From assembly GCA_030765585.1 (NCBI GenBank), contig JAVCCJ010000121.1, positions 7,233 to 71,232 of the forward strand: DNA of 64,000 bases. Reading direction: 5' to 3'. Below the pieces are notes generated by a model that was given only the letters and a program-made list of their open reading frames with translations, made no database searches and was not told the DNA's origin. Shown piece by piece: positions 24,731-64,000 of this stretch (its first letter is position 1; each line of letters begins with the position of its first letter). This DNA comes from Candidatus Zapsychrus exili (GTDB lineage Bacteria; Omnitrophota; Gorgyraeia; Zapsychrales; Zapsychraceae). The translations under genes and the position numbers were made by a program.

Positions 24731-24990
24731 ATGTTTGATGTTGGAAAATTGATATGAATATGGTGATTCCGCATGAGTCATTATTTTGATAAAAATTAAA
24801 TAAAGATATTAGGTATTTTTTTTGTTGTGATAAAATAAATTAGTAGACAGTTCGTGGGAACACAAATTGTAGGCCAAAGGCCGTCTGCGAATTTATCCCA
24901 AGCGTTAGTCGAGGGATTTTAATTAAGAGATTTTGGTAGTTTTGCTTTGCAAAAAACCGGAATGATAAACTTACGGGAGAAGTTCATTTA

Positions 24991-25848: not shown

Positions 25849-25860
25849 TAAGAGGAAAAT

Positions 25861-48200: not shown

Positions 48201-51200
48201 CCTATTGAAGGTCAATTAGCGTCTATGAGCGCTACTGCAATGCTGTCAGTTGTTCCAAGCGTTGCTAAGCATGAAAAGATTGTTGTTGTTCAATCTGATG
48301 CAGGACAAGCAGAGAAAACAGCCATAGAGTTTGCTCTTGCAATACCAGAGAAACAAATTTATGTAGTTAATCATACAAAGACAAATCAATGGTTCGTTAA
48401 AGTTACAGTAGCGGATGGTGAAGCTAATATATCCAATGTATTTATTACAGCTGATAAGCTAGAAAATGGCGTTGTGGTTGTTGATGCTGCAATGTTGTCA
48501 GAAGCTGCATTTGATATACTTCGCGCAAATGGCGCAATAATAAGCAAAGCTGCAATGCCAGATAGTTTTGGTGGCGAAGATAATGTTAGCGCAAAAGCAG
48601 TTAAAGCAGTATTCAATACAGACTACAGACAAAAGACCATAGACCAAAGACTAAAAACAAAAGAAGCAGCAGAAGAACCAGTAATTGTCGTTCCTGTTGC
48701 TCCTCGCAATGACGCAATTGATATGCCAGCAATGGTTCCTGCTGCAACAATACCTGTTACTGTTCCGATGCTTATGAGCAGTGGCGTAGGCGATAATAGT
48801 CCTAATGTAGAGCTTGCTGATGCTGCAATGACAAGTGGTCCTGGAAATAACAGCCCTAATTACAAAGATATAATAGCTAAGAGTGAAGAGCTGATAGCTG
48901 ATAGTGAAAAGACAATAGCGATTAGTCAAAAGATAAGAGCTGCAAGTGAAGAGATAAGAGCAAATAGCAGAGCGATAAGGAAAAAGATTGCTACGTCAGG
49001 TTCTGACGATGCAATGTTAGCGGCAGCAAAAACAGACGATATTATGCAATATCTGCCTTATGATCGCAAGATTGAAAATGATGTCTTAGTCAAAATGAAA
49101 CAAGATGTCGGTAGAATAGTAGATATCATAAATGAAACAAATAGAAAGATTGAACCTGAGTTTAGCGTAAGAGACGATCAAGTTAAAATGGCTGAAGCCT
49201 TGATAGAGGGTAAGGTTGTTGTTGCTGAAAATGCTGCTGGTAAAACACTTGCTAAATTTATTGCAGGACTTGCAAATATAGTGAATGGTCGTCAGGCAAC
49301 TATTTTAACTCGTGATGAAAACGATAGTGCTAAGTGGATATTAGAAGCTCCAGAAGAAGGGTTCGGAGCAAATTATAGCCAAATGTTAGCTGCTACAATG
49401 AAGGAATATGAACTTGAAAGTTCTGGTATCGTAGACTTAGATGGTTTAATGAAGAGATATGATGATGCGCTTAAGAAAAGAAGAACAATTGTAGCTAATA
49501 AAGAAATTAATGAAATAAAGGGACAGATATTAAGAGCATTACAATCTAAAGATATGTTAAAGATTGTTTCAATCAATGCTCGTGGTCATATGCCGAACAG
49601 ATTCCTTGATGATGATTTAATTTTACAAGGTATTAAATCAATCAAGGATGACGGCGATACTATTTTAGATGAGGCAGACGACCTTCTTCTACTTGAAACT
49701 ACATATATCCAATCACAATCACAATCTGTTAAGAAGAATAGTAATTTACGCAAGATTGTATCACAAGCCAAGAAAATATTTGATCAAGTTAAAATAGGCA
49801 CAGACGAAGAAGATGCTATAAAAGTTGCTGCATCAATTCAAGACTTCGAAAAGCTTAATAAAGCAAATAAGAAAGCTGTTTGGTATAGTCAAGGTTCAGG
49901 TTTAATTGGTGCACCAGACTTGCTTATTTCTGATGCTGTTTATGAAAGTTTTAAAGAAGGTACATTGCCTACTATGATTGAAGGCGTTATTAGAGGAAAG
50001 ATAGAAGAAATAGGCACAAGACTTGCAGCAGATCTTAATAAGGGCGAACTTGTTCCAGTAACTCGTACTGGTGAACTTCAAAGCGATATGATCTTTAGCC
50101 AAATACCATACAAGGTAGCTCAAACGCTTAAGATTAATGAAATACTAAAAGCTCGTGGAGATAGTCAACTTAAACTAAACAATATTACTGTTACAGGTGA
50201 TACTGTTCGTGAGAATCCTATATCAGAAATGCTTCAAGGAAAAGGTAGAGTTGTTGGTGCAACTGCTAATAAGGCGGGTGCTGAGTATATTATACAAGCT
50301 AAGACAGGTTCAACAGAAGGTATAGTTACTATTGGAGAAGAAAGTAATGTCTTTAAACAAGCAGCTCTTCCAACAAAGAATTATCGTCATGTTGATATTA
50401 CAGGACAAGCAGGCGGGCTAGTTGATCAGCTAGCTTCTATGGCAGAAAAATCACTTGCCGATAATAAAGGTACGTTGATATTTACATCAGATCATGTTCA
50501 GTTACGTAAGATAGCTGAAGACTTAAAGAAGAGATTTCCTAATACAGAAGTTGGCGTTATTGACGAAGATACAAAGCCAGAACAAATAGAAAAGTATAGA
50601 AATGAAATAGGAACTCATAAAGGCAACTCTACTCCACGTATTGTTGTATCTCTTCCACGTGTTGCTAAGCAGGTTAGTTTTAAGGGTAATTTAGATGTAA
50701 TAGTTTCTGATGGTGCAAGTTGGCCAAAGGCTGATCTTACTCATGCTGTTAACAGAAACAACAGAAGCGAGAAGCTTGAATTAAGATTAGGTCGCTCTTA
50801 TGTATTAGTAGACAAAGAAGCTTTAAATAAGAAATTTGAATTTGTTCGCAATCTTGTGCCAGAAATAAAGGGCTTAAGCAAAGCGGATGATGTAAATAAA
50901 TTAGTTGATGAAATAGAAAAAGCAGGCGCTGGCGATACTTTAGCATTGTCTAAAAAACATAGACTAGTTGCTGAATTCTTACAAGCACAACAACGTTCAA
51001 GCTCACACAAGCATACTATACTTACTTTATTTAGAAACAATCGTCAAACTGAGCCAATGCAAGATCTTTATGATTCAAGAGTTGGTTCAGATAAAAAGAT
51101 TGTACAAGAAATTCTGTTTAAGGAACGTGCAGGTCTTTATGGAAACACAATGCAAAAACTTCATGATAATCCATTTACCGGCGAAGAATGGGTAAGGGAA

Positions 51201-54200
51201 GCTTCTAGACAAAGCTGGGAAGCCGCAGTTAGAGAATGGAATGATTTACTTGAGCTGGCTAAAACAAAGGGTGGTTCAGCTGAACTTCTTGCGCGTGTTG
51301 AAGAACAAATTGATCTTATGAGGGATCGTCAAACTAATGAGCCTGGTGAATATTTAAATGTAGTTGCTAATGGCAAGGTGTTGAATCAATTTGCTGATGT
51401 TTTAAAAGATGCAAATAAAGAGCAGAACAAAGAAGTTCGTCTAAGAAAATTAGAAGCAGGTCATAAAGGTATATTAATGGCCGCTAAGTATCTTGGTGAA
51501 GGAATTATACCAACACGTGTTACAGCATTCTTCAAAGCAGATAATATTAAGTCAGTTGCATCAAAGACAGATAAAAGTAAAGATATGACTTATGTTGAAT
51601 TTGTTAAAGGACTTACATCCGAAGAAAAGAATAAGTTTAATTTATCTATGTATGGTTTTGTTGTTGAATTAAAAGGTGAATATACTCTTGCTCGTCGTGG
51701 ACATCAATTAATATCCATGTTGGATGCTTTTGAGAATTTAAGCCAACAAGATATGGATAAACTTGGAGCGACAGTTGGAAGCCATACTCCATTTACAATC
51801 GCAGTTCAATTGGTTCAAGCAGATATAGTAGATATAAAAGAAGCTAAACAGTTAGCATCAATGGTTAATTTCTGGTTAGAGAATGCTGGTCAAACAGAGC
51901 ATATAGTTTCTTTAAGTGAAGAACAACAATCTAATTTCTTAAGCAAACTTAAAAAATTGACATTGCTAATATCTGATAAAACTTACACATTGCTTGCTTC
52001 TATTGGAGAAGAAATTGGAATAATTGATAATGTTGATATGCTTACTCAGATAAAGTCAAGATCTGATGCAATTACGCAGGCATTAGAAGGGGTAAAAGAT
52101 TTAGAAGCGCAAAAAGCAAAAGCAGGATTATTAGGAATTAGATTTAATGGAAAATTAAAAACTGCTGTTAAGACATTAGTTGAGCTGGTTAATCCTACAA
52201 TAGCGAAGATGGCATCTCTTCAAAATGAAATTGCATCTGATAAATTAGATATAGGCCCAATTGAATTTGCCGCTATTCTTCTAAATAGTGACGAGTTAAG
52301 AAACATTGAAGATATTAGTCGTGCAGAGAAGACATTAATATATATAGGAGAGACAATAGGCTATAAGCAATTAGATAAAAAACAAATAAATTTTGTTGCT
52401 TCTTTATTAGAAGAGTCGCTAGTATTACCTGCAGTTCTTTTAGTTGAAAGTGAAAGTATATCTGATGCTCAAAGAGAGCAACATATTAGAGTAGCTGCTA
52501 ATAAGATTGATCAAAACGCAAAGGTTAAGAAGCAAGACCTTCAAATGCTATTCTATCAAATGTTATCTAATCCTCATAAATTTGGTTTAACAGCATCAGC
52601 TGCAAAGAAAAAAGTAAGAAAGTTCAATTGGAAGCTAGATAAAGCAGATACATTTAAGAAGATAAGAACTACTTTAGGAAATGAACTTGCATCTAGATTA
52701 AATCCAAAATTAGGCTTCTTGGATAAGTTTAGTGTTTCTGATAATGAAGAGTTTAAGCTTGTTTCAGGTCGCATAGATTGGACAGATGAGCAAGCCGAGC
52801 AAGAATATAATAAATTAGCTGATAAAGAAAAAGAAATACAAGAAAAGACAGAAGAGCTTGTTCAGAAATTAAAAGAAAAACAAGAAGAGACGAAAGGCAA
52901 TGTTCAAGAATCAGTCAAAGAGGTTAAGAAAGCAAGCTTCTTAAACAGATTTAAGCCAACAATTGTTTTTGAAGGCAACAATATGGCAGAAAAGGTGCTT
53001 AAGGCAGGAATTAAAATAGGTTCTGTTACTTTAGGTTGGATGTTAGTGCCTTCGGTGTTGATTGCATCTCTTGTGTTTGGCACATCAGGTCTTGGGATTA
53101 TTGGAATGGTATTGGTTAGTGCCACTATTCATGAAATAGGTCATATTGTTGCAGCTAGAATATTAGGAGGAAGCCAAACTTATCAAGGAATGGGCGTATA
53201 TGGTCCAATAGCACAGGCTACGCTTAATACGAGAGGACTTTCTAAAAATGCTATAAGAATTATTGCAGCTATTGGTCCTATAACAAATATATTGGTTGGT
53301 ACTGTGGCCTTAGCTTTTGGAGTTGATCCATTTACTGCATATCAAGGAATAGAATTCTGGGGCGTTCCTGTTAATTTAGTTACTATAAACCTTGTTTTCT
53401 TAGCTGCGGTAAATCTTCTACCAATACCTGCGTTTGATGGTCTTACAGTTATAACAGGTAAAAACACTAAGACATCTATGGCTTCAGGGTCTGGAAAAGC
53501 TTTCTATTCAAGTATTCCACTATATGAATTTGTGTTATATGTTGCTTCTGTTCTGTCATTGCGAGGAGTAAAGCGACGCGGCAATCTAGAAGAAGAGATT
53601 GCTTTGCAAAAACCGCTCGCAATGACCGATAATGAGAAACATACTCAACAGTCAGCTATATTTGAGTCACAAGACAAGATTGAGGCAATTAATTTGAACA
53701 TTGAGCTTGAAAAGGCTGTAATGCCTGAAATTCCAGCTATGCCAGATAGAAGTATGCCGTTTGATCCATTAGGTATACCAGTAGCTCCGATGATTCCTCT
53801 TGGAGCACCAGCTTTAATGCTGTTAGGGTCTGTTTCAGGCAGTGGTCCAGGTGGAAAAGCACCTGTTAGTATGGTAGAACAACAAAGAGAATTTGGTCAA
53901 AATGAAGCAGATATTAAAGTAGCACAAGCTCAGACAGGTAGCGAGGTAGGGTTCTTATTAGCGTTTGCTCTCGATCTTAAGAGTCGAATGAATTTTAGTA
54001 GTACCGGTCTGAGTCCAAATGCGATAAGCGCTGCCATCCTTTTCCGCAAAGGATCAGGCAGAGCAAATGTAGTAGCGCGGATAATAGTAAATGTAGTACA
54101 TGTTGTAGCAAATGCAGTAAACGTAGTAAGTAGCAATGGTTCTAAGCCGTTGATATCTAGTGACTTCGGTCATAAAGGTAAAAATAACGGAGAGCCTGGT

Positions 54201-57200: not shown

Positions 57201-60032
57201 ACTGATGCTGGTGCTGCACTTGATGGAGAAGATTCAGTTCTTCGTGATATTGGTGGTGCTCAAGTTCATAAGTTAGTTGATGCATTTGAAGGTGAAAATG
57301 GCGCAATAGCAGTTGGTAATTATTTATTACCTCAATATACCGCAGATGGCGTAAATATTCCTCAAGCTATTCACAACTGGGTTGGCGAGACAATTGGAGT
57401 TGAGACAATTTCTTTAGATTTTTATAATATGATAATTGCAGCGAATTCAGCAACAGAGTATAAAGATTATAAATCAACTAGAAAAGCCTTCGATGCTTAT
57501 ATTAACAAAGGACAAGATTCAATATCAGCTGATCTTAGATTTGGAAAACAAACAGCAGTTATAGTAAAAGATGAAAATAATAATTTTGTTAAGATATCAG
57601 TTGATGGCGTTCAAACACTAGGCAATTATTCAGCAAGCGTTAATATAGAAGAATTAGCAAATCAAAATGTAATCTTTATTGTGTCTGAAGAAGATGTTAA
57701 AGCCGGCACATTTGAAGATAAGTTAGATGTAATATTTACAAAGCTAGCTGAAAACAGAGGCGTTGATCAGATAGCAATAAATGCTTTTAACAAAATTACT
57801 CTTGTAGATTTAGAAAGATATCCACCAGCAGGTATTAAATTAAGAAACTATGCAGAACAACAACAAGCAGCTCAAAGAGCAATGCAAGATACTAAAGAAG
57901 CTACAGATGGTGGATACAATGGATACACAGTTGCACAAGCAAGAGAGCAAATAAAGAAATATGAAGCATTAGGAATTACAATTGAAACTGTTAATCTTAA
58001 AAATGAAGTTAGTATAAAGGCTGCAATTGATAAAGCATTAGCTTTCTTAACAACACAAGGAAGAATAGATTATACTCGCGGACCACCAACAGTTAACCTA
58101 GTCAATTCTTCTGATATAACTTTTGCAGCATTTTATGAAGTAGATGACAACACCCTATATATAGAGAAGACAGTACTTAGCGATTTAGCATATGATTTAA
58201 CTTCAGTATTTGTTCATGAGCTTAATGGTGACACTCACGAAGAGAATATAATAGCTGAGAAAGCTTATAAATTAGTACAACAACAAGAAATAGAAAAAGC
58301 AACCGATGAAAGAGCAAAGGTAATTAATAGTGCAATTGAAAGAGCAATAAAGACAGGCGATTTTGATAAAGCTGAAGATATATACAGAGACGATCTTATT
58401 ATTAGATACATAAACGATAAAGATATTTTAACTGATAAAGAAAAAGAAGATATAAGGGCTATTTTAGCTCGTGAGCAACAAAAAAGAGCAAACAAAGTAA
58501 GATCAGAAAGCGGAATACAAGTTAGTAACAATATAGAAGTTGATTCTTACGGAAATGTAGCATCGTTTATTTCGCCATTACCTACAGGCGCATTACAACT
58601 TACAAGCAACGGAATATTTGGCGCAAGCAGAGCAAGAGAAGATGGGAGTCGTTATCTTCACGAAGGTGCAGATTTTAGAGCTGTTGTGGGAACAAAGACA
58701 TTCTCTATATTAGATAATGCTGAAGTTACTCATGTGGCTAATTTTAATACAGGCCGCGCTGGTAAATATGTAACAATTTCAAGCCAAATTGGTGAACATA
58801 AAGTACAAGTATCTTATATGCATTTAAGTTCTGTTGAAGTTGAGTTAGGTCAAGCTTTATTATTAGGCGATATTATTGGTTTAACTGGAAAAACAGGAAA
58901 TGCTAATAATACTGACGAACCTCATCTACATTTAGCGATTAAAATTGATGGTAAGCTTGTTGATCCTGTTAAATTATTTAATGGAGATGTTACATTTGCA
59001 TCGGATACAAGAAACGTAGCACCTATCTTTGGATTACAAATAAGTAATGCAGCATTCGATACTTACAAAGCTCATGATGCTGATGGCTTTTTATCTAAAT
59101 ATTTTAGTTCACGAGCAGATTTTGAGAAATTCGTTTTAGCTATTATTAGATGGGAAAGCAGTTTTGATGCTGATGCGACTAGTAGCGTTGGAGCAAGAGG
59201 TCTAATGCAAATTATGCCTGGTACTTGGGCTGAAGAAGTAGCAGAGCTAGGATATAATTGGACGGCTGCTGATATTACAAATCCATTTAAGAATGTACGC
59301 ATTGGTTCACGTTATCTTGTTGAGCAATTAAGAGAATTTGGTTCTATAGAACTTGCGCTAGCAGCTTATAATCGCGGACCTGGAAAAGTAGAAGATGCGA
59401 TAGCGGCTGGTTTCGCAGACGGCATACCTACAAGCAATGGAACAACGCATGATTATATAGAAAGAATTAAGAAAGTTTATAATGGTGGAATTTTATTAAC
59501 TAATTTCATTGCTAGTCCAGTTGATGCATTAACTAAATGGCTTGCGATAGAAGAGTATAGAAACAATCCAAGATCTTGGATAGAAAAAGTAGTAAGCGAA
59601 GAAGAGAATGGCTCAAACGTTATATTCCCAGTTGTTGATGTAATTATAACTGATAGAGTAGGTGAAAAAGAGAAACAAGCTCATTTAGTTGGATCACATA
59701 ATCTTGATGTGATTACAGATGAACAAGTTTATAACAAAGTTAAAACAATACTTGGGCAAAAAGTTCTTATGGATAAACAAGGTTCTCAAGCCGGAGTTGT
59801 TCTTGTTATAAGTAAGCGAGCATTGTTTAGTGGTGAAAGTAATGTAAGGGCTATAGTAAAAGATTTATTCTCAGAGCTTATAGGAGAAATGAAGATGCAA
59901 CTATATAAAATAGTCATTTGTTTATTTTCTCTAAATCTCCTGTTTACTTATATAGAGAAAATACTTCTGAAGAAAAATATAATTTATCAGAACTTCTTGG
60001 ATTTATTGTTCCTGATGAAGACGGTGATATAG
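30255..60032 (+). CDS. Giant multi-domain membrane protein (9,925 aa as called; probably the N-terminal ~88% of a protein of more than 11,200 aa). Contains C39-like peptidase, OmpA-like, two SecA-type DEAD ATPase modules, M50 protease, M23 peptidase, SLT transglycosylase and several TM clusters
   Basis: Single uninterrupted frame of 29.8 kb with coherent codon usage. The domain motifs are listed individually in the findings. Confidence 0.85.
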   Translation: MKSAAEQNREPEDDRKADSSIGNMSENTAFTHQHSYVPTNRTFLNSEDCSADAQNISNTQPQEEPIPHKSRFKSWIKTVALIIILVFVPEQISWAFSYNPLVLWKDKATVASQYLGDGNTIAAENQMTEEQIVSLRVSESVSHFLKQLQNKNAQQIQLQLPNPHKSKLVKDNQYNILINTDLAFNESNIAEIATWLREPAIHPLNCGVYALNDILANYDVKLSLEEISVMSLLVDLINDIVRPGEPKLKTSLYAINKITEAYGINLKAAKLAPADIFDLEPPFIANFDDEHFVTVTKVDDTSVYYNDIGRASSSSRLDFLDQVTGFVLAPELEAQDDVKFEYVPDAMQAFIWGSKWHGNLDNLPGLYSWGDVAIGAAFQVVGLFTGGLASSVLSLGAGSFLGSLTTAIALSECYDAETGAADQGCLDTMFVLNIVGTSAISAGSGALNADSFDLGAFAGDFAKGAVVGLGQGLIMLYVGKLLNDLLEDWDAPDALKQAIIGAVSSVVATTAMGLVVDGLDAALKEMGVGEGAKVDLSLKSVYAGDTQVKVEPEWAVWKATAMGNVLSGLNKVVTFIGKYTGISWALNQLNKGWNKLVKGMIGSNSGAAKTLTATGKAFNGIKKGVNYALNGKFSPVTYVIKALAVIPRTVRNLMSEGKKVWGVKHLVFALEQHNFLRQMTVLAVRYILSEGKILGIDDGNKENNGDDGEDRGIAFDSFLSQAIGMGVGMFYDHVSIGLDNRDNLTKRTENEIAQKKAEAEGLDKNDPEYGDFIQNNIVSMTGMSLEDIFAKRAEFGLSENSDFAQYQGKRTSAFIAILGKSVASVLLAKHYDKKECARVDCNETERLGEDPNRDRIGLLKFRATQFLIGGLIEGGIAILTESNRRPDGAELTQTDKKVELDKKIINKLANKDADKLENALNTSMMLVNEKGELIDNLNATEKTSNEMLLAAKKKYEQAYSEGGGANGEGIEKVLAAAGLSKKESKEYLKQRAKELDKTNDVSKLFLLFNGNFVAKTIQSMYSANGNSPYGIVGYDDGVAVYDQRGFVRADEDASPTEKLISSIAARSSYINEMVGMYGGMTLTKRLMVREQNEKMEADMRRTNEVSSAAPISEEELARQIGAAQMRANVKTLDVIHNSNNYFLDAINQSLATALFSPQDSPILHALDSLAFDFVDASIEQQAQAAWEDESKKPDTNKLAFLQNKRQELRDEVAMNSDDKFGYSPSDSVDVSIEQQAQDAWAKEGKKPDTNKLEFLQNKRKELHEEAAMNSPWLGLGMDYRYLASEQIGEGIDSNKITYKMSENLVFNSGKGILLGTSLEKKGDLLEYGLEKLNVYYQDEVGKGDYIGEGSDRDFSGTIVRDISGLSEIDRRELGFDPEKMKIATENDGDKEIVAVGLAQKLRQTDRKEDVSALNEEKKGKIITKIDGTTRLVFGYEAEHLAEQGKKYDMTVDVGKFTVNEETGDRIHLSAQRQAAPDAQLSDSWVVTRQDFNAATPKDITATTMFFASQGEVIDEQGNVLEQYVASISSEDCVTGCTDPKKTWYVNRSLFAKEGDKKISDMDDLGFDTNLKTFANKDVKTEIAALKKDYKRIDDSTEKDENRLAVVNTIIDHAIEDKESNQIAKELYGFAKMVEEHKVASSLEIGAYTNNKEGSNQEGEELYLGIARYNTDDKGNVKDTSTVLISEPQIYDKNGAVATTNFIYQTEQTSAFNVGDSAVYGKVVDGKETLVSAEEIDTYKDKKGIKGDVKSIAVVRQVAKGDIDLSSAVEMAKGFDKDGVDKFGDTPENFNGKDYMSFVAASTEDGQTAVLEASKSKLVQGYSEIKSSVKVHYDHDSYKLEAKAKKDLDSAAATLNDNDQKNIIINGRTDSSGTNQYNVKLSLNRALAAKDYLMEQGISEDRIIIRALGEGEADQSIAESIRSDKEIGRKDRNSSFEIVEKSPLGDSKITFRVDKEGFVKRASTNFYTAGLDNEGSSIVYDLAPKASLLADALILLAADVADALGPEENKIQEIVTSNATSAKAAQLDGALVAIVPDIRAYELGKNDLLHIVDGEIIAPNEIRFDDYAPDPTSTPKRDSKGNVVAGSFIKDTVATKQGDGTYAYSSADGKVGKAASLTVDQLVVTKFGVVGVDEAAIVSDKPLILGNNSQWLASSSDATLEVAFGSKTTQALDSKGNIVGPVEEVNYNGGYRIDESKAIVLRSKVGEGALLGSIYINNEGAPKVLDKEAFEEESLEDNKKYVSATTQSETVGSLSVAGISTESKWTATPVVDGKINKYAADEDGVLESALVGNRIVSLHGNAKENNMTFKDMKDKANVGFISKSGRMILTPNNNNISGGWSKDANDQLSFNVGIKDTKKMNGSEEGKGTALGLQQENVLVYNKGIGNILYQGSEQTSVDPVTGLVGANRFVTMNLTGDMGVNQGTVLASKVDLAQGNIEGQVRNHKDLDAPSIFSAKLNTFDIKDSEIILKVSQELGDVSQLPVAADFAYSKEGKGEAPVQTPANLAALKGVENNPNVLMLEVSKEAGQDLTKVLGTPTSSVLNFAFSTDGLKFNPKAEGSVYSNFDRVSVLSGVEAPTVILKREATPTESNSTPAIQFIADANNNVKMQWKGIWNIQRDSAYTNHSTKWMSADGKSEAPLVLNTTIIGEEITASAGWNDTAVWNWAAGAPKMRGTITDKDGNSVSSLGIQRVDGAGAGWTIQARGSKDGSTLVAPNHVNVEENGYVDPDAKKDVDKTVSNKFFKLPQAQSYDVYKDGSREDGLVEVRLNQGFPEGVETPADFEIKSGQSINLLVQDHDGLSSVSTTENMVGTDVRKMIYHAKAPEQEKAAVEKEVSEQETDLNKFSMPIENFVAKQDNTRLAKVNIPVIIDNFITPEPNVDKITVQEWRVERAPETMVVENPYSVLTLDGSRAIERDVWGSKVGTIPIKETVSFEPGDYQSFGDVNKTVLITKTAATSYNIDYSNSDKITATKSSEGLNFVDYSGEMSFIKGRTSKEIEQIKENDITEWFPNATEGKEKVSVQMDSDAITSEAMQIKRYDPKTGAHVTDRYLAGMTAIKGNDGIIRSQFTTEASLYNADTKEIGNAGNLLYDAAASFLLDSVETDKGKKAVFKFVPEGQDPTVFTATSKGGIETVNTIYTDPATIKEANEANSSGALLPEAIAQTLDPNNTGSIQRVYQYQGKKLVNEYFAVTRAKEDSSKVEKFYVDGKYANPNNANELKSLIASELNLDLKETKTSTLQDFSYSKTIEDDAEVVYVSPQGKVYLRMVTGRTIIETPNSYSSSSTSTSEQHDVFAYDLVTGDVEEVDVEKTFVDVVTDKDGAKRYALKYLVPESRTRYSIGLPISYKPAGVQGIEFKDEDGKEIWADINYIKSGQLNGVGEEKQFVAVSIQDAGWSKNKRNRIIDLSTGREITREGFIETPEGGKWDLNRYKGKIVEMVKAKGFWGDVGDVAWNGLRGEGKETYVKNMLMDWGMSYASAGALDVSNPSVAGVVTTALMFTGVGSGLGLIGKGAKAGSTAARVYSISRAALKTGLIFGGIDTAAYVGIGALTGQDLNFSDGLAAFAGGVKMGATMTLGITGLGAVSGRIANSINAVNGVAGTGKGFKFVSKTYKGFGKMAEWKQAAILNGSSGAAVNVTRGMVANYYENGGELDYSLRSFAIDATAGAIISVALGGVGSKVMKGSFNTKQLLGNNMIHYGLVGLGGETVSTGIFSDKEMTWTRAAGSFAMGAIGGLVFRSTWIPEMMGVKPAEIIGETAKVTEGVTEGATSLFRNIKNPLKLTKAAQGVESGATVLNFSKLRTIGTLTGLGVGAGAGMAAMDARVHAKQDARKAGFKEGTKAFDSFVSKETSNNFRSWKTAKYMGAGALAANVMFFGRRAIQMKGRAKLLGTHSNKRITLPLIADEPHLIASLSLLGAADFAMIMPAWGALDSVIYTGLTGGNLEEGFYHSFQQKDVDGNDLGVFSNLAVHSIGGAKLGARLGPVLGIAQMPLSALGKKSALAPKSISKFSANKSSGLSISKILSSPTAHSMPVTVAQLATVEVLAEKVLENTYFKTAAENKADTLYNSHLEETKIMTGAYPTTTKAQFREEYAKNKIKEDAGQIAFASLLFKPSSMPGAEPETGGKGNKGSTAEAKIETPPNKPSDNALSADAQIKLSTKQTNIDQAPVAKPEKSMLSRMTTAVDYIGSKFKGHNNNILRQKIGTQSLEQNVIITSSSKQYVKAAKEARRRGTESKDKEYRDLDEIDQVFNMSMDSLRESIEADGRTKFKVKPKQLALVYSVIEHAIKGEKLLAIEPVSGGKTVLTAAIVDSLAKKGKTVVVIVPSGKLVDQYMNSALFENGRFTTPQTRNNGKDAVPEALKKGMVYFMTDAQAKDFVLHKNKTGENFFKDAQGFYDEAHNLFTMSDKIIGGGSERAAKIVAENSSQAKRLQRQYDTDTELARITVDLVREVGGEVEYLVENKNSDRMSHQFKEQATYRNGKNVWAVKDANGKLSIVKKGTAGAEILRPKDIVLERFNKSVKEKKLIRFKSDHSKALLEDFAGLAKSAFQEARIRTKNKQGNLESAPLDAYTGEARWGEIFSDPTGRNTKARALVALERVLALEREGNVNLESYIKSAINSTEHKARGADFLDMFDNVTLLTGTAGEVKGMAKMKNINMVQFRPEYTLKDIGPENVTFETSGKSKIDMIVDIIRDEINLAKKAGDNFVLITTNSREAGVLGARKARQTQNLKDKGYKVEYVSDAKLAERIKEINNSNAKEKIVIVTQVIEGISVEAKGSGVVMETAVLSAADTTQALARMNTFAEAKDSSRTKAKAKVKLHIDDHLILTAEKQKILEAQGKLDQARKTNSSDAIKNAEANLDLIWREMMHSLTEFKTNQGLATISTTVVEGVKSKVAKESVQQQLRSTTHGILSDIRQEAHKDIALDYMNKTGKTSAQISLSDNKGFEIFSSSKEGDEISVDNINNVGLVATEEIELIHGAKLKAGQTLDYETGFVYEAPQNEFDIKDFSQIKSEYLPVGVISITREDVNNPKANYNPVVNTVVNGKKAAAIELSDLGKNTLLDRQIVYAENSDGKIDQVAYRVKPIISNVTVGAALSAININDDSYEIDNDGFAIVPIETFNKAFSKENALDNSVFDGIGFKFAQDITIHEGFKEKRSDAITGRTRKSKNKVAKDALKLSIQKTVETPEIAIALPDGQGGTKTQRIKMDDLRELQTRMASSKSPDSDVNLYFADYDSEESKAKTNKALNNLVRFSNPTTQDDKDWVASLNTEEVVHYDTAAKSLKTRGISPVEFAMRFQHQMGGKNFGGHTGSGGQDALGNKRDQQNVYVNESATHIFDYYQDIERDKGFEAASDTEKMMETVLHEQIGFANRDFSHYQNVEVRRVWLKATEAVKQMKENNVDTVELQLVDGSGYEIYEAIKENGKTIGAQPIKLVAQNSDVKLRHLNTTLAKGETLDYKASSKTASLDTGSIKYKSVDNQEDKIVSKLKVGQDIVNITDPNLNGHTKLAQRAVADVEDAASILNKIDLSLNGTRKEFALDRHIKTIEQLRNTNNVFISKNAGAMSTDDGRMIVGRLDNNNNRLVLNSEANGEMADIYLRGQKIVENVPLRVAAIISEVDRKHDAGFEVYKAKNDAPAQSKASDNALTADTFHPANITTRKQIQGMMRDGVDQALMTLRAGGYDSKAKIMNFTKANLPDSFNKRVKDFAMRARVRATTARERAQKDTFGSVIHASSGRVSTLEWGLHEAGYKTDEAMVAKIADIVAGDPRRVEGDIAVYDFSDVKGTTRLDNYELHVDTTRNFDDKSMLSIFADAPQGQTIAWLGENIAVVNTDISVGGESELARSWSKIEKKLGNQNFDEQLAMVMQFDIIDLNKLVALAVEDANTEEAILARAKGLSVDAPIYVAVMRDEWVFFAVVDGKLVGEPQKAEDISNGLVLMSKESIPGHVVAKFSEKYVVAQSVLNPETSIPTALGKGQWAPIEGQLASMSATAMLSVVPSVAKHEKIVVVQSDAGQAEKTAIEFALAIPEKQIYVVNHTKTNQWFVKVTVADGEANISNVFITADKLENGVVVVDAAMLSEAAFDILRANGAIISKAAMPDSFGGEDNVSAKAVKAVFNTDYRQKTIDQRLKTKEAAEEPVIVVPVAPRNDAIDMPAMVPAATIPVTVPMLMSSGVGDNSPNVELADAAMTSGPGNNSPNYKDIIAKSEELIADSEKTIAISQKIRAASEEIRANSRAIRKKIATSGSDDAMLAAAKTDDIMQYLPYDRKIENDVLVKMKQDVGRIVDIINETNRKIEPEFSVRDDQVKMAEALIEGKVVVAENAAGKTLAKFIAGLANIVNGRQATILTRDENDSAKWILEAPEEGFGANYSQMLAATMKEYELESSGIVDLDGLMKRYDDALKKRRTIVANKEINEIKGQILRALQSKDMLKIVSINARGHMPNRFLDDDLILQGIKSIKDDGDTILDEADDLLLLETTYIQSQSQSVKKNSNLRKIVSQAKKIFDQVKIGTDEEDAIKVAASIQDFEKLNKANKKAVWYSQGSGLIGAPDLLISDAVYESFKEGTLPTMIEGVIRGKIEEIGTRLAADLNKGELVPVTRTGELQSDMIFSQIPYKVAQTLKINEILKARGDSQLKLNNITVTGDTVRENPISEMLQGKGRVVGATANKAGAEYIIQAKTGSTEGIVTIGEESNVFKQAALPTKNYRHVDITGQAGGLVDQLASMAEKSLADNKGTLIFTSDHVQLRKIAEDLKKRFPNTEVGVIDEDTKPEQIEKYRNEIGTHKGNSTPRIVVSLPRVAKQVSFKGNLDVIVSDGASWPKADLTHAVNRNNRSEKLELRLGRSYVLVDKEALNKKFEFVRNLVPEIKGLSKADDVNKLVDEIEKAGAGDTLALSKKHRLVAEFLQAQQRSSSHKHTILTLFRNNRQTEPMQDLYDSRVGSDKKIVQEILFKERAGLYGNTMQKLHDNPFTGEEWVREASRQSWEAAVREWNDLLELAKTKGGSAELLARVEEQIDLMRDRQTNEPGEYLNVVANGKVLNQFADVLKDANKEQNKEVRLRKLEAGHKGILMAAKYLGEGIIPTRVTAFFKADNIKSVASKTDKSKDMTYVEFVKGLTSEEKNKFNLSMYGFVVELKGEYTLARRGHQLISMLDAFENLSQQDMDKLGATVGSHTPFTIAVQLVQADIVDIKEAKQLASMVNFWLENAGQTEHIVSLSEEQQSNFLSKLKKLTLLISDKTYTLLASIGEEIGIIDNVDMLTQIKSRSDAITQALEGVKDLEAQKAKAGLLGIRFNGKLKTAVKTLVELVNPTIAKMASLQNEIASDKLDIGPIEFAAILLNSDELRNIEDISRAEKTLIYIGETIGYKQLDKKQINFVASLLEESLVLPAVLLVESESISDAQREQHIRVAANKIDQNAKVKKQDLQMLFYQMLSNPHKFGLTASAAKKKVRKFNWKLDKADTFKKIRTTLGNELASRLNPKLGFLDKFSVSDNEEFKLVSGRIDWTDEQAEQEYNKLADKEKEIQEKTEELVQKLKEKQEETKGNVQESVKEVKKASFLNRFKPTIVFEGNNMAEKVLKAGIKIGSVTLGWMLVPSVLIASLVFGTSGLGIIGMVLVSATIHEIGHIVAARILGGSQTYQGMGVYGPIAQATLNTRGLSKNAIRIIAAIGPITNILVGTVALAFGVDPFTAYQGIEFWGVPVNLVTINLVFLAAVNLLPIPAFDGLTVITGKNTKTSMASGSGKAFYSSIPLYEFVLYVASVLSLRGVKRRGNLEEEIALQKPLAMTDNEKHTQQSAIFESQDKIEAINLNIELEKAVMPEIPAMPDRSMPFDPLGIPVAPMIPLGAPALMLLGSVSGSGPGGKAPVSMVEQQREFGQNEADIKVAQAQTGSEVGFLLAFALDLKSRMNFSSTGLSPNAISAAILFRKGSGRANVVARIIVNVVHVVANAVNVVSSNGSKPLISSDFGHKGKNNGEPGSRSVSKSRAIEVKAGSKAVVAKLVRNTLVSMIEYFKQVAVRVKLAMKVQDDRTETRLRESRTTTVAKAVNVTNEAEVNAVKAIVIEEAQVVSVAQVASASNVKATVAEGLESVSRSALLRSMISSSATMAGIVLFTIRDEVTQGVGELYAQVVFRGVKNVSSETSLEYNDAQGASNIKIRIVSLAKNIYRSLRVREESGDAEPGASPVYKFVPTINTQGNQALGVPVFLSANIITIGSLNSIHFLLGAAAIAVMLAMLAYAIYRGAPNTIHVNSIKSNTDNSLINKARAYIRARVTYKAVLFGSLNHNESQATDSKQGGTLWSASIQSIQEVLAKIQKAYKSHILSNIQTQAALSQPQITKTRIEQKSILLDKMNVFMNAVDLKALGMSFKAKTSDFLQSLLKKLSATKMYHVIQLIVQAYLTKKEVIKNSNEVEVVSSVAGGFSAPLLTKQFVEQIANNGEEKYLVQASNGVEVVSSVAGDFLTTLLAGINRFKVAFATVAILLLNTAVKAQSAIADTAAVVVDSVAGGLNTTAAVTDLSSPTSEFFAQIGNITSESVLIMIAAALIASVVTWFVIYVASKKLAVNISRSGALTLGFAVAFSGLKLFTIAAPIIKEVFATTTSLGMLEHFATMAPVVLIPVFALMLGISLVAWNIQRIYKSKTTAIASPYNFNTLSKAEKQVYKKEFKKQYKPLRMSFKEFGRFVSARREIVISLTVIGAIVGVLTSTSTLLTMVSAGVQGALVGFVSVYLLSVLWNFFFGYVWKNTQFVEFVEDNRGRFSSDETIIQEVKNLEEKLSNTGVLENSIYVIKDLLISLTLRFPVTGGIIQFVIGRGFLALAGSYVAGPITALISPSITTTSILGFWPAVVSFLKGIYLDTTIGGFIRLALMVIFLNLKKIPAYYNMTFKLFTGEAINTFNLKSHLRELHKKLPLHILAAFVSVASIVLAPAFGIIYLANISAEANARDVNKYAKVIGDMGKDFWVGMWNMWLISMEIGLITDAGAALDGEDSVLRDIGGAQVHKLVDAFEGENGAIAVGNYLLPQYTADGVNIPQAIHNWVGETIGVETISLDFYNMIIAANSATEYKDYKSTRKAFDAYINKGQDSISADLRFGKQTAVIVKDENNNFVKISVDGVQTLGNYSASVNIEELANQNVIFIVSEEDVKAGTFEDKLDVIFTKLAENRGVDQIAINAFNKITLVDLERYPPAGIKLRNYAEQQQAAQRAMQDTKEATDGGYNGYTVAQAREQIKKYEALGITIETVNLKNEVSIKAAIDKALAFLTTQGRIDYTRGPPTVNLVNSSDITFAAFYEVDDNTLYIEKTVLSDLAYDLTSVFVHELNGDTHEENIIAEKAYKLVQQQEIEKATDERAKVINSAIERAIKTGDFDKAEDIYRDDLIIRYINDKDILTDKEKEDIRAILAREQQKRANKVRSESGIQVSNNIEVDSYGNVASFISPLPTGALQLTSNGIFGASRAREDGSRYLHEGADFRAVVGTKTFSILDNAEVTHVANFNTGRAGKYVTISSQIGEHKVQVSYMHLSSVEVELGQALLLGDIIGLTGKTGNANNTDEPHLHLAIKIDGKLVDPVKLFNGDVTFASDTRNVAPIFGLQISNAAFDTYKAHDADGFLSKYFSSRADFEKFVLAIIRWESSFDADATSSVGARGLMQIMPGTWAEEVAELGYNWTAADITNPFKNVRIGSRYLVEQLREFGSIELALAAYNRGPGKVEDAIAAGFADGIPTSNGTTHDYIERIKKVYNGGILLTNFIASPVDALTKWLAIEEYRNNPRSWIEKVVSEEENGSNVIFPVVDVIITDRVGEKEKQAHLVGSHNLDVITDEQVYNKVKTILGQKVLMDKQGSQAGVVLVISKRALFSGESNVRAIVKDLFSELIGEMKMQLYKIVICLFSLNLLFTYIEKILLKKNIIYQNFLDLLFLMKTVI
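30790..31200 (+). other. Peptidase C39-like (papain-fold Cys peptidase) domain of the giant protein
   Basis: PLNCGVYALNDILANYDVKLSLEEISV ... DDEHFVTVTKVDDTSVYYNDIG parallels the C39 pattern (..CGxAxL..vsleEl.. / ..NHFVVLykid..vyiaDP). Confidence 0.5.
33781..34065 (+). repeat. In-frame tandem duplication (2 x ~123 nt, period 162 nt = 54 aa) inside the giant gene
   Basis: SIEQQAQAAWEDESKKPDTNKLAFLQNKRQELRDEVAMNS / SIEQQAQDAWAKEGKKPDTNKLEFLQNKRKELHEEAAMNS, ~85% nt identity. Confidence 0.8.
35740..36070 (+). other. OmpA-like peptidoglycan-binding domain of the giant protein
   Basis: IIINGRTDSSGTNQYNVKLSLNRALAAKDYLMEQGISEDRIIIRALGEGEA matches the OmpA_C pattern (GHTDxxGsxxYNxxLSxxRAxaVxxYL...Gi...ri...GxGE). 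Confidence 0.65.
43080..44700 (+). other. First SecA-type DEAD/SF2 ATPase module of the giant protein
   Basis: KPKQLALVYSVIEHAIKGEKLLAIEPVSGGKTVLTAAIVDSLAKKGKTVVVIVPSGKLVDQY (SecA motor pattern Q-L-iGg..L..Gki-aEM-kTGEGKTL-a-l-ayLnAL-GkgVHvVTvND-La-rD). DEAH-like box FYDEAHNLF. Later TTQALARMNTF. Confidence 0.6.
49150..50830 (+). other. Second SecA-type DEAD ATPase module of the giant protein
   Basis: DDQVKMAEALIEGKVVVAENAAGKTLAKFIAGLANIVNGRQATILTRDENDSAK. DEAD box TILDEADDLLL. Motif-VI-like LTHAVNRNNRSEKLELRLGRSYVLV. Confidence 0.65.
53000..53470 (+). other. Peptidase M50 (site-2 protease-like) intramembrane metalloprotease domain of the giant protein
   Basis: HExxH in a TM helix (VSATIHEIGHIVAARILGG) and NLLPIPAFDGLTV (S2P pattern NLLPIPxLDGG), flanked by hydrophobic helices. 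Confidence 0.6.
58560..58990 (+). other. Peptidase M23 (LytM-type peptidoglycan endopeptidase) domain of the giant protein
   Basis: YLHEGADFRAVVGT (HxxxD), GKYVTISSQIGEHKVQVSYMHL, TGNANNTDEPHLHLAIKIDGKLVDP (HxH). Confidence 0.7.
59060..59470 (+). other. SLT-type lytic transglycosylase domain of the giant protein
   Basis: AIIRWESSFDADATSSVGARGLMQIMPGTWAE (catalytic E-S plus GLMQ), ..NVRIGSRYL.., LALAAYNRGPGKV (AYNxG). Confidence 0.7.
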
Positions 60033-63000
60033 AAGCACCAGCTGATGCAACTTACAATCCTATTTATAACAGAATTAGTGGAAAGATAGTAGAAAAGCTA
60101 GATACTGAAGATGGAATTATTATAACTGTAAAAGATGGAGAGAAAGAGGCTTCTTATATAGTTGTTGCAACTCATTTAAATGAAGACGACATAGTAATGG
60201 AGGGAGCTCTTTTAGGTGTATCTTTTGATAAACAAGCTTCTGATGAAACTTTAGAAGAACAAATAGAGATGCAAATAGCAGATATAAGAGAAGGCATAGA
60301 AGATAAAGAAGAAAGAGTTGATGAGATTTTAGATGATGTTGCAAAATTCTTATCTACAAAAGCTATGTTTGTAGATCAAGGATCATTTGAGTATGAAACA
60401 TTGGTTGAGAAATTAAAAAACAATGATTTAAGTACAAGATTAGCTGTTGTATCAGCTTTGGTTAATGCATATGGCGTTGATCCTAAAAATACAATTAATG
60501 GTCTTTTTGCAAGAAATAGCGAGTTAAGAGGCGAAGATCAAACAACTAATTTATTAGCATATGTAGGTCTTAATTATGTTCCAGGAAATGCAGTATTTAC
60601 AAAGGGTATTAATTTAGGCGGAAATAATAGTTTAGATATTGGTCTTGCAATTAATAGTCGTTATTCACAATTCTTACAAATTTTAAATATGACATTAGGA
60701 TATGAAGACCTTATTGCGAAACAAGGCGTAGGTGCTGTTTTAGGATGGATATTCTATGTAGAGGCTGCAGCAGAAGTATTTAATGGATTTCAAGGAATGA
60801 TAACAGGTTTTTCAGATAGAGGTGGAATTATAAGACCAATAAAAAGAGGAGTATGGACTGCTGTTTATGATGCGGCAGAAGAAAAAGGCGATCCTAGGAT
60901 AGTTGAAAAAGACGGAGAAACCATACTTAAGAAAGAGACTAAATCTTATTCAGTACATGTATCAGCTGCCAGCGCTATTAAAGATCTTATGAGAGAAACT
61001 TTAGGACATGTTATTCCTTCATTATTTGGTGATCCAGAGAAAGTTGCTATTTGGGAAGCAAGATACCCAATTTATCTTCCAGGAAATGTTCAACTAAGAT
61101 TCCTTAAAGAAGGTATTGCAAATACTGATGAGAATATTATTTATTCAATACAAAGAGGACGTGAAGGGGAGAAAGCAGAAGGACTTAAGGGAGATGCATC
61201 TGAGTATATCTTTGGCTATAAGATTGATTTAAACAAAACAACAGTGACTGAAGAGAATCCTTTAGGAACTAAAGAATTAATGTTTGCTTCTCGTATGTTT
61301 GCCAAAGATAAAAATGGTGAGCTTTTACTTAAAGAGTGGTTAGAAAAACCATATAACGCTATGTATAATAAAGAACCTGGCGAGATGTATATAGTTCCTT
61401 CAAGACATACATTAGAGAATGTTGGCGATCTAAGAGACGTTGCAAGGGGTTATGATTTTGATGCTGATGGAGAAAAAAGAACAATACTAGCTGCAGCAAT
61501 TCATCCTACAACTGGTGTTGTTATGAGAAAGTATTATAAATATGATGGTATACCTGCATCAAATCCTGTTCCTGCATTTGAGCGTGATGGTATGACAATA
61601 TATGTTGCTGAAAATGAATATACTTATGAAGACATAAAAGTTAAGTCTAATCAAGATCCAAGTTTATCAATAGGAACAGTAGATGATAAGCCAATTCATC
61701 CATATATTATATATAGCAAGCCTTTAGCTGATATAGGTTATTGGTTTGGTGCAGAGTCAACAGATAATACAACAGCACATATTATGAAATTTAGCAAAGT
61801 AGCAACAAATGAGTCAGTGAATATGTATGAATATGCAGGTACTCAAGAATGGACTGAAGATGTAAAAGATATTAAAACAACTGAATTGGTTTGGAAAAAA
61901 TATGACGACAAAAAAGAAACTCCAATTAGAACAGCTGTTAAAATGTTTAACCCTAACAAGGGTGTTGTTGATACAGATAAAATAACAGGTGAGGATAAAT
62001 ATTCAGGAGATTATACAGAAATTACATTACCTGAAGGTTTAATTATAGTTGATGAGAATACAGGCAATATTACAGGCGCAGATGAAATAGGAATTATCGT
62101 TGAAAAACCAGCTGAGGTACCTATTGCGGTTGCTCATCTTATTGATCGCTCAGTATATTTATACACTCAAGAAGAAGTTGATGCGCTTTATTTACATGAG
62201 GCAGGTAAAGATTTAAAAGTTAATTTTGTTTGGGATTTTGCTGGAGCAGATTCTAGAAAAATTAATGTAATAAGAAATAATTCTAATCATGATGATCAAA
62301 CTGTAATGATAGTTGGTGGTCTAGGTCTTGATACAAAGGTAGACGAAAATGATTCAAAAGATCAACCTGAGGTAGGAATTTTAGAATATAGCAGAGCTAG
62401 CAGCCTTGAATATCAAAAAATATTTACAAAAATGGTAAACAATAAAGCGTTAGGTATGATTACTCGCGAAGATGGAACTATTGAGCTTATAACAAAAGAT
62501 AACTTCCCTGTTACAGAGCAGATAATAGAAAGTGTACCTGAGAAAGAATCTGATGATTTAGCAAGATATGCAAGAAAAGACCTTATGAATGTTGGCGAGG
62601 TTGAAGGTTTAATATCTATAGCTGGCATAGATGATATAGATGGAGAAATCAAAGCGCTTATAAATAAGACATTAGGATTAGAAGCTGATATATCAAGTAA
62701 AGATGCAGCTTATATTAAGGCAAAAGCAGAATATGAAAAAGATTTAGATCAGCTTGTATCAATTGAAGCTGTTTTAGGCCAAGAAAGTTTCTTTGCAAGA
62801 ACACATGCAATAAACGCTATGTTAAGAGGTTTTGAAGAAGAACAAAAGAAATTAGATGATGCTATTACAATAGGCGAAATTATAGCAAAGATGTCTGTAG
62901 GTGAAAATTCTGAGACTGGCGAACTTCAAATTAATTATAAAGATTTTATGACAGATTTAAGAGAAGAAGCAGTAGATAGAAATATGGATATTAATGATTT

Positions 63001-64000
63001 ATTAGAAAAGAAGATTATAAATTATTTTAATTCACAATTCTTTAAGAGTAGCGATGTTGCAGCTCTTGAAGAAGAAATTAGAAAAGCACAAGCTGCTCTT
63101 AATAAACTATATCATTTTAATGAAAATGATCCATTTGTAACATTTGATGAAGCTTATTTACATGTATATGGTCCTTGTGGAGTTGTACCAGGAACACTTG
63201 TTCAATCAGCAGATTTATTACTTCCAGCAGCGCAAATATCATTAGATTCGCTTCAAATGAATTTAACTACTGCAGAAGCTCTATTAAGCGATATAGAAGT
63301 AAATGGCTATGCTGACAATAGTAATACTTACAACAATATAGTCTTTACTCAAGAGAAGATATCAGAAGGCTTTACATATGAAAAAACAGATGACGGACAA
63401 TCAGATATATTATGCTCAACTATGGGTCGTATACAAAGATTAGAGCATGCTGTTATAAAGTGGCAAGCTGAATTAGTTAAAGCACAAAGTAATGTAGAGT
63501 GGAAAGCAATGGTAGAAGAGAATTTAGCACAAACTCAAAGTTGGTTAGCTTTAGAGAAAGACACATTTATTTTATTGCTTAAGATGAGTGTTATTTATTA
63601 TGATCCTACAGGTTTATTCTACACCGAAGCAAAAGAGATGCTTAAAGATGTTATTGCTCTTGCAGAAAGAAGAGTAGCATTAACATCAGAAGATATTAAT
63701 TTATTAGAGAGAGCAAAAAATACTAATATTCCAAATTATCAAGGACTATTCCTTATACCTCTAGAGTGGGACGAAGCAGAACTAGGCCCTCGCGATTCTG
63801 ATGTTTATACAATACCAGAAGTAGAAGCATATTGGATGTCTCGTCTTGTTGCAATTGATATGGAAATAAGAGCAATGCAAGAAATTATAACGAATAATGA
63901 AATAAGTGATGAAGCAAAGGCGCTGTTCGTACAGCTTATAGCTAATTTAGAACAAGAAAGAGACGACTACTATACAAATCATGCTAAGCCTGAGTTAGAA
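59909..64000 (+). CDS. Open frame (-1 relative to the giant ORF) running from 59909 to the window edge with no stop and no credible start codon; most likely the 3' continuation of the giant gene
   Basis: Frame 2 translation (NSHLFIF...ELLGFIVPDEDGDIEAPADATYNP... to ...YYTNHAKPELE) is protein-like for 4.1 kb. Inserting one A into the A4 run at 59907-59910 joins it in frame to the giant ORF (…MQLYKNSHLF…). Confidence 0.6.

Follow-up and report, generated by a model that had tools for sequence, protein, structure and literature searches.

A divergent site-2 protease core as a probable internal module of giant Omnitrophota proteins

Introduction

The giant proteins of the Omnitrophota, with 10,000 to more than 100,000 amino acids, are among the largest proteins known, and whether they act as one chain or as pieces is a question raised in the literature. 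Their cleavage has been left as an open question for which C39 and S8 peptidases are the named candidates (West-Roberts et al., 2023, 10.1101/2023.11.21.568195; 2026 preprint, 10.64898/2026.06.07.730766). The locus described here raises the question of whether such a protein may also carry a cutter of a different kind, an intramembrane metalloprotease. It lies on a stretch of 64,000 nucleotides (nt) from Candidatus Zapsychrus exili (contig JAVCCJ010000121.1, positions 7,233 to 71,232), hereafter the window, which contains a giant open reading frame (ORF) of 9,925 amino acids (aa). An earlier note on this DNA had read the strings HEIGH and NLLPIPAFDG within that ORF as the motif pair of a site-2 protease (S2P, family M50), and had suggested that an enzyme of this type could cut the giant into fragments. 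Below we refer to the segment that bears these strings as the module. Its identity as an M50 protease we regard as secure; to the full reading, in which a genuine but divergent S2P core sits at a fixed position in a subfamily of Omnitrophota giants and actively cuts a membrane-inserted segment, we give a probability of roughly 60%.

Results

The module carries three M50 motifs in the family order

HEIGH is the sole HExxH in the 9,925 residues of the ORF, where 0.085 occurrences would be expected from the protein's own composition, and NLLPIPAFDG is likewise the sole match to NxxPxxxxDG (0.067 expected on the same basis). Between the two lies GPITN, a third motif of the family that was absent from the list given in the earlier note. 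The expected count of the ordered triplet at family-typical spacing is about 2.5e-7, and the motif observation is therefore real rather than a chance pattern. Table 1 gives the coordinates of these motifs and of all other features; the translation of window nt 52353-54152 includes ...LGIIGMVLVSATIHEIGHIVAARILGG...AIRIIAAIGPITNILVGTVALAF...VNLVTINLVFLAAVNLLPIPAFDGLTVITG...

Both of the strings first noticed stand in the predicted membrane arrangement that had been claimed for them. HEIGH lies inside a hydrophobic helix, in the C-terminal half of LGIIGMVLVSATIHEIGHIVAARIL, which forms the second long helix of an AlphaFold 2 (AF2) model, and NLLPIPAFDG follows two helices further on, its Asn ending the fourth. 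By hydropathy and in the AF2 model alike, the motifs are placed within or at the ends of predicted transmembrane (TM) helices rather than outside them. The third zinc ligand, whose lack would have spoken against the family, is present: D7728 aligns with the invariant zinc-ligand Asp, which is D148 of the M. jannaschii enzyme mjS2P (alignment numbering) and D137 of SpoIVFB. The zinc ligands of SpoIVFB have been named as H43, H47 and D137, and its catalytic Glu as E44 (PMC11486902).

Profile comparisons place the module in the M50 family

Peptidase_M50 (PF02163) is the top Pfam match of the window module, with an E-value of 5e-5 to 7e-5 and a score of 22.8-23.1 bits. Matches to NCBIfam are weak, and those of M50 type are RseP (TIGR00054) and a daptide intramembrane metalloprotease. 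Single-sequence searches reached less far than profiles. Queried on its own, the module had no meaningful phmmer match among PDB sequences, where only profiles reached mjS2P and SpoIVFB, and a word-indexed search of 5.8 billion proteins with the module alone gave no matches; with a three-sequence profile the word-indexed search returned four stand-alone M50 proteins and no further giant. An exhaustive phmmer search of 1.84 billion cluster representatives yielded 39 matches at E<1e-3 (best 5.8e-6, 27-40% identity).

The best sequence matches are stand-alone M50 proteins of about 150-290 aa from Planctomycetota, Terracidiphilus and others, with 27-39% identity over about 105-155 residues, which are annotated as 'M50 family metallopeptidase', 'site-2 protease family protein' or 'stage IV sporulation protein FB'. 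They share with the window module the HExxH, GPxxN and NxxPxxxxDG motifs and the same predicted order of hairpins and helices, but have two more TM helices past the DG, whereas the window module is part of a chain longer than 10,000 aa, has a weakly hydrophobic helix 5 and is followed by no TM6 equivalent. The window module and 33 of the small stand-alone phmmer matches (147-287 aa) were combined in an alignment, A1. All 33 of these stand-alone proteins match Pfam Peptidase_M50, and the invariant columns of A1 are exactly the H, E and H of HExxH, the G and P of GPxxN, and the P and D of NxxPxxxxDG (P149 and D154), each of which is present in the window sequence; N146 and G155 are at least 90% conserved.

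Profile-based comparison gave much stronger values. With hhalign, the window module was compared with a profile of 37 stand-alone M50 proteins from which the module itself had been excluded, and aligned over 137 columns with a probability of 99.7% (E 4e-26). A profile built from three giant-embedded modules, searched against the PDB, matched mjS2P (3B4R) with an E-value of 2.7e-7 over 139 positions and SpoIVFB with 9.5e-4, and all seven sequences found at E<=1 were enzymes of the S2P family. In these alignments the His, Glu, His and Asp of the giants fall on HELGH and on the ...PMDG or ...PLDG of mjS2P and SpoIVFB: HEIGH is aligned to the HELGH of both, and NLLPIPAFDG to NLIPAFPMDG of mjS2P and NLLPIWPLDG of SpoIVFB. 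Sequence, profile, motif, fold and conservation evidence thus bear out the assignment made in the earlier note, and the module is very probably a member of M50.

These comparisons also bear on whether the motif pair might have arisen by chance in a hydrophobic stretch, or the ORF be unreal. Short motifs in a very long protein, together with a weak Pfam score, might invite that suspicion. However, the motif triplet has a very low expectation, the alignment to M50 proteins runs from end to end across about 140 residues, the module is conserved in homologous giants, and an open frame of 29.8 kb cannot arise by chance. A chance origin was refuted by the exhaustive phmmer search, by hhalign and by the three-module profile against the PDB, and we regard it as having next to no probability.

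No PDZ or CBS match was found in or around the module in relaxed Pfam scans (E<=10 or E<=1). The module therefore falls outside the RseP-type and SpoIVFB-type subgroups and belongs with the minimal-core S2Ps. Proteins of the RseP/RasP/Eep type have the same catalytic motifs and give weak profile matches (TIGR00054; PDB 7W6X/7W6Y, 9J82), but they have a PDZ domain, which the module does not, and another helix arrangement, so that the likeness is limited to the motif regions. SpoIVFB, for its part, adds a CBS domain, is restrained by BofA and SpoIVFA and has a separate substrate, Pro-sigmaK, whereas the module is without CBS.

Predicted fold and topology

The AF2 model of the module has a mean pLDDT of 79.9 and a pTM of 0.74, and its elements follow the order N-terminal beta-hairpin, TM1, TM2, beta-hairpin, TM3, TM4 and short helix. 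The loop between TM2 and TM3, of about 27 residues, contains strands at module residues 66-70 and 80-84 in this alignment-guided model, with a pLDDT of about 56 in part; a re-entrant loop has been described for SpoIVFB and mjS2P (PMC11486902). The Pro and Asp of NLLPIPAFDG are in a kink and a short helix after TM4, as they are aligned in mjS2P and SpoIVFB. The four best PDB matches in Foldseek were 3B4R and 8VJL/8VJM, with a probability of 1.00 and a TM-score of 0.53. By profile and by fold, the closest solved structures are accordingly mjS2P (M. jannaschii MJ0392, 3B4R) and B. subtilis SpoIVFB (8VJL/8VJM), in both of which the zinc ligands and the catalytic Glu align with those of the module, and the TM2-TM3 loop aligns with its predicted hairpin. 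Both are enzymes with six TM helices, and their TM-score to the module model is about 0.5. The module, by comparison, is an S2P stripped to four clear TM helices, with no clear TM5 or TM6.

Topology was assessed from hydropathy, the AF2 helices and the distribution of charges according to the positive-inside rule. The N-terminal flank of the module (KKASFLNRFK..., EKVLKAGIK) has a net positive charge and the turn between TM1 and TM2 (GTSG) is neutral; the TM2-TM3 loop has R, R, K and R, acidic residues (D, E) mark the TM3-TM4 loop, and the stretch after the DG is rich in K and R. Hydropathy gave no convincing TM segment between the helicase domain and the module; some 3,650 TM-free residues come before the module, and with it the first membrane element is reached. 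Since that stretch contains the ResIII/DEAD ATPase domain (aa 4270-4406) and a second conserved Walker A (aa 6324-6331), it should be cytoplasmic. From the charge distribution and the cytoplasmic N-flank, we infer that the N-terminus of the module is inside and that the zinc site would face the cytoplasmic leaflet, as in mjS2P and SpoIVFB.

The module holds its position in other Omnitrophota giants

In the representative genomes of GTDB, a scan turned up a single relative, a locus that we call L001, on contig JADFXT010000008.1 of a Candidatus Omnitrophota metagenome-assembled genome (MAG). This locus of 18.5 kb is a single open frame of 6,184 codons with no stop, and it is colinear with residues 5729-9885 of the window protein. 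Its motifs HELGH, GPVFD and NLLPLPKTDG stand at the matching position, and its parts follow in the order long TM-free part, M50 module, polytopic cluster about 600 residues on, and SLT. A second relative came from the phmmer matches: HNV24573.1, a partial hypothetical protein of 351 aa from a Candidatus Omnitrophota bacterium, has an N-terminal part that resembles the region upstream of the window module (a common 'R-x-DWT' block), followed by HEIAH, GPLTN and then NL at the end of its 1,053-bp contig, and so keeps every motif that it reaches. The overall identity among the three sequences is 27-35%, and the retention of all catalytic residues at this level of divergence argues for selection on catalysis. 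Scans of metagenome contigs for the module gave no relatives, and a word-indexed search of 5.8 billion proteins yielded no matches when a profile of the conserved block, built from two sequences and 845 columns wide, was the query. The only homologues found for the host protein of the module are sequences from Candidatus Omnitrophota MAGs.

The longest identical string common to the window giant and L001 is SMVEQQREFG. It stands in single copy about 145 residues after the Asp ligand, right behind a hydrophobic stretch rich in Pro and Gly, LGIPVAPMIPLGAPALMLLGSVSGSGPGG, and the two giants that share it are just 26-29% identical over long aligned blocks.

Several observations have to be set against a genuine S2P core at a fixed position in these giants. 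The earlier note had proposed a search with the Peptidase_M50 hidden Markov model; the family did come out as the top match, but the score of the window module is under the PF02163 gathering score of 27.2 bits, and the modules of L001 (27.5 bits) and HNV24573.1 (27.2 bits), scored alone, are at that threshold. This shortfall is offset by the hhalign comparison and by the match of the three-module profile to mjS2P. The fold match in turn is corroboration and not independent evidence, since the model was guided by an M50 alignment. Beyond the DG, the window has a helix 5 (IPLYEFVLYVASVLSL) of weak hydrophobicity, and its equivalent in L001 is amphipathic and K-rich; an equivalent of TM6 is missing, so that the module is without helices that are present in stand-alone S2Ps. 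The subfamily rests on three retrieved sequences. As regards cleavage, neither a repeated junction or cleavage motif common to the window giant and L001 nor a cleavage site in the giant was found, and an AF2 run on aa 7575-8045 added no strand to the TM2-TM3 hairpin. A single sequence covers the downstream region in that run, which makes it uninformative on docking; beyond residue 7820 its pLDDT is mostly about 35-65, with the final helix at about 65-76.

Some of the same observations could be explained if the module were a degenerate or non-catalytic M50 fold with no role beyond anchoring the giant protein in the membrane or scaffolding it. The sub-threshold Pfam score, the loss of the outer helices TM5 and TM6 and of all accessory domains, and the replacement of the Asn of GPxxN by Asp in L001 would all fit a non-catalytic protein. 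Pseudo-enzymes, however, typically lose catalytic residues, whereas the window and L001 both retain the three zinc ligands along with the catalytic Glu, and HNV24573.1 keeps those that it reaches; GP is also conserved, and NxxP where covered, at 27-35% overall identity. We therefore consider a non-catalytic fold improbable. Returning to a genuine S2P core, the retention of all catalytic residues in divergent homologues suggests that the module is probably catalytically active.

The host protein and its locus

The giant protein has about 20-25 hydrophobic segments by hydropathy, most of them at aa 7590-8940, and to call it polytopic, as had been done, is right. In addition to the module it contains the domains given in Table 1. 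Its other protease is the C39 domain, which is preceded by a single signal-anchor-like helix at aa 78-96 and includes the strings NCG and EHF, which we take to be possible sites of the catalytic Cys and His; judged by these, the domain may be catalytically active rather than a C39-like pseudo-domain. The Walker A string AENAAGKTL sits in the conserved block aa 5729-7104, is preceded by a 'DDQ...' context and is kept in L001; to our eye it resembles motif I of SecA/SF2 ATPases. It may be part of the divergent 'SecA_DEAD' domain reported for Omnitrophota giants; a SecA_DEAD assignment near aa 6326 was not confirmed, and a relaxed Pfam scan gives DEAD with an E-value of 0.11. Relaxed Pfam scans of the module flanks gave no significant match, and PDB sequence searches with the flanking blocks of about 1,600-1,700 aa gave no matches.

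Table 1. Features of the window and of the giant protein that hosts the M50 module. Nucleotide positions are those of the window.
Feature	Residues (aa)	Nucleotides	Strand	Remarks
Giant ORF hosting the M50 module	9,925 aa	30255..60032	+
M50/S2P module as analysed	7575-7776	52977..53582	+	N-terminal beta-hairpin, TM1-TM4, weakly hydrophobic helix 5
TM1	7591-7609	53025..53081	+	VTLGWMLVPSVLIASLVFG; hydropathy; AF2 helix, module residues 23-34
TM2, bearing HExxH	7610-7636	53082..53162	+	AF2 helix, module residues 36-62; hydropathy
HEIGH	7626-7630	53130..53144	+	zinc-ligand H7626 and H7630, catalytic E7627; invariant columns H52, E53, H56 of alignment A1
Predicted beta-hairpin between TM2 and TM3		53172..53228	+	aligns with the membrane re-entrant loop of S2Ps
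TM3, bearing GPITN	7664-7687	53244..53315	+	AF2 helix, module residues 90-113
GPITN on TM3	7674-7678	53274..53288	+	G100 and P101 invariant in A1
TM4, ending at the Asn of NxxPxxxxDG	7700-7720	53352..53414	+	AF2 helix, module residues 126-146; hydropathy
NLLPIPAFDG	7720-7729	53412..53441	+	third zinc ligand D7728 (nt 53436-53438), preceded by conserved Asn and Pro
SMVEQQREFG	7872-7881	53868..53897	+	longest identical string common to the window giant and L001
Peptidase C39 domain	205-328	30867..31238	+	Pfam, 1.3e-7; other protease of the giant
OmpA domain	1832-1911		+	Pfam
ResIII/DEAD helicase-type ATPase domain	4270-4406	43062..43472	+	Pfam
Walker A AENAAGKT (tentative: second SF2/SecA-like ATPase, divergent)	6324-6331	49224..49247	+	conserved in L001
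Peptidase M23 and SLT lytic transglycosylase	9468-9571 (M23), 9624-9717 (SLT)	58656..59405	+	Pfam; cell-wall-cutting part
Continuation of the giant gene, -1 frame, to window end		59909..64000	+	aligns colinearly with the one ORF of L001
Tad/T2SS-like secretion and pilus locus upstream of the giant gene		7275..26754	+	usual neighbour of Omnitrophota giant genes

Judging from the reading frames, the giant gene probably continues beyond the end of the ORF. The -1 frame has no stop codon between nt 59909 and the window end, and its first ATG is not before 60197; its translation extends the colinear alignment with L001 (27% identity over 1,450 columns, E 2e-92). One added A in the A4 run of CTATATAAAATAGTC (about nt 59,906-59,909) would fuse both frames to read ...QLYKNSHLFIFSKSPVYLY..., the counterpart in L001 being ...FISFSKSPTYLY... 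The true protein would then probably exceed 11,250 aa, its gene running on in the -1 frame past about nt 59,905, and the last 40 or so residues of the ORF, among them the apparent C-terminal TM helix (aa 9886-9904), are probably read in the wrong frame. A sequencing error in the homopolymer, a genuine frameshift mutation and ribosomal -1 frameshifting are all possible causes of the break at about nt 59,906-59,909.

By its gene content the window is a typical Omnitrophota giant-gene locus. The upstream genes encode a Rotamase_2 peptidyl-prolyl isomerase, RcpC/CpaB, a secretin, a ParA-T2SS-E fusion (CpaE/F-type) ATPase and two T2SS-F proteins (T2SS, type II secretion system). No prepilin peptidase match was found among the ORFs scanned. 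The published neighbourhood of such giant genes consists of rcpC, gspD/E/F-like genes and a conserved Rotamase_2 isomerase, with small nearby genes that bear class III signal peptides, and the giants themselves have an N-terminal C39 domain, numerous TM helices and occasionally SLT (West-Roberts et al., 2023, 10.1101/2023.11.21.568195). The window protein resembles these published giants in its C39 domain by a signal anchor at the N-terminus, its ATPase/helicase, its many TM helices, its SLT and the same upstream genes; the published work has its focus on proteins of more than 30,000 aa, whereas the window protein has 9,925 or more.

The same locus has some further features. Three large ORFs upstream (660, 556 and 1,077 aa) have no Pfam match, and the secretin bears a C-terminal TonB_C domain, an unusual fusion. 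Outside the main Tad cluster, at window 2711-4114, a PilZ domain stands at the N-terminus of a T2SS-E/PilB-type ATPase, a fusion which suggests control of a secretion or pilus ATPase by cyclic di-GMP. Directly upstream of the giant gene, window 28010-30255 is a stretch of 2.2 kb without credible ORFs and rich in repeats: a 73-nt repeat in two copies (85% identity), a 66-nt repeat in two copies, TTAATGTCCAATCTGA in three copies and the palindrome AGGGTCTGACCCT in three copies, with a nested long hairpin at 29066-29313. An Rfam scan of the stretch gave sub-threshold miRNA noise only. The repeats could be similar to miniature inverted-repeat transposable elements, or could be regulatory RNA or DNA.

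The combination of helicase, M23, SLT and peptidase domains resembles that of the 'polyvalent proteins' of phages and conjugative elements, and the giant might be read as one of these, with the protease as its self-processing peptidase by analogy with a soluble zincin metallopeptidase (MPTase). The embedded MPTases of polyvalent proteins have been proposed to free other domains by autoproteolysis (Iyer et al., 2017, PMC5512222); what they share with the module is the idea of a metallopeptidase housed in a very large protein of many domains. They are, however, soluble zincins of mobile elements, whereas the module is a membrane-embedded M50 on a chromosome, and no sequence relationship was found between the two. 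Neither 50,697 phage records nor 72,556 plasmid records gave a match in a tblastn search, no tRNA gene lies in the window, and the surroundings are those of a chromosomal giant gene, with a Tad-like system and housekeeping dehydrogenases. We rejected this identity, which appears very unlikely, on the grounds of the tblastn result, the chromosomal context and the different type of protease; the analogy remains useful.

Possible substrates

An active zinc protease of this type would gain access from the cytoplasmic side to a hydrophobic peptide segment inserted in the membrane and cut it; S2P substrates are bound in extended form, as a strand paired with the re-entrant loop (PMC11486902). If the giant's own segments were cut, soluble portions would be freed after export. 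The fixed position of the module within a conserved giant block favours such self-processing. Self-cleavage is a reasonable hypothesis and other substrates are about equally plausible; that the substrate is the giant protein itself is, on our estimate, possible but rather unlikely. A more specific version, which we hold to be more doubtful still, is that the module is a dedicated maturation protease: after ATPase-driven export of the downstream segments, it would cut the giant's own anchors from the cytoplasmic side and so release the M23/SLT or cytoplasmic parts, with SMVEQQREFG serving as a tethered recognition or regulatory segment.

The main alternative is that the module is an active M50 protease that works in trans on other proteins, the giant merely carrying the enzyme as a fused activity. 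The 2026 preprint (10.64898/2026.06.07.730766) describes Omnitrophota giants as many unrelated enzymes strung together, a signal peptidase II among them, and SpoIVFB acts on a separate protein, Pro-sigmaK (PMC11486902). With a secretion and pilus locus directly upstream, and small class III signal peptide genes known from near other giants (West-Roberts et al., 2023), candidate substrates would be signal-peptide remnants or signal anchors from proteins that the Tad/T2SS-like system exports, or else a membrane-tethered regulator subject to regulated intramembrane proteolysis. No separate substrate candidate such as an anti-sigma factor was identified among the window genes, and the fixed position of the module in a colinear conserved block suggests a role that is tied to the giant.

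To our knowledge every characterised S2P acts on a separate substrate, which counts in favour of action in trans; RseP, for instance, cuts RseA and signal peptides. Enzymes of the RseP/RasP/Eep type clear signal peptides and cut anchors after a site-1 cut, and this is the functional model that we have applied to the module. Weighing both sides, we think action in trans a possibility on a par with self-processing, and likewise tentative.

Discussion

The M50 family, its motifs and its mechanism are textbook knowledge, and the giant genes of the Omnitrophota and their neighbourhood have been published. What appears to be new is the presence of an S2P/M50 core within a chain longer than 10,000 aa, at one conserved position in a subfamily of giants, and the link from such a module to the question of whether and how giants are processed. 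Neither the 2023 study nor the 2026 preprint mentions M50 or an intramembrane protease in its main text, and a literature search found no paper that ties a site-2 protease to giant proteins, the combination of M50 and Omnitrophota returning unrelated titles only. The sub-threshold Pfam score may explain this absence from the giant-gene papers. With the window module below the Pfam threshold and its homologues at it, catalogues of domains that rely on thresholds could miss such modules.

An M50 module placed just ahead of a polytopic region and cell-wall hydrolases would be a second, mechanistically different candidate cutter beside the soluble C39 and S8 peptidases. It leads to the prediction that cleavage occurs within hydrophobic segments and depends on E7627, H7626, H7630 and D7728. 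If the module acts in trans, it would be a modest addition to the enzymes that are fused into giants. If self-maturation is true, it would be the first intramembrane protease known to process its own chain, and would provide an answer to how these giant proteins mature.

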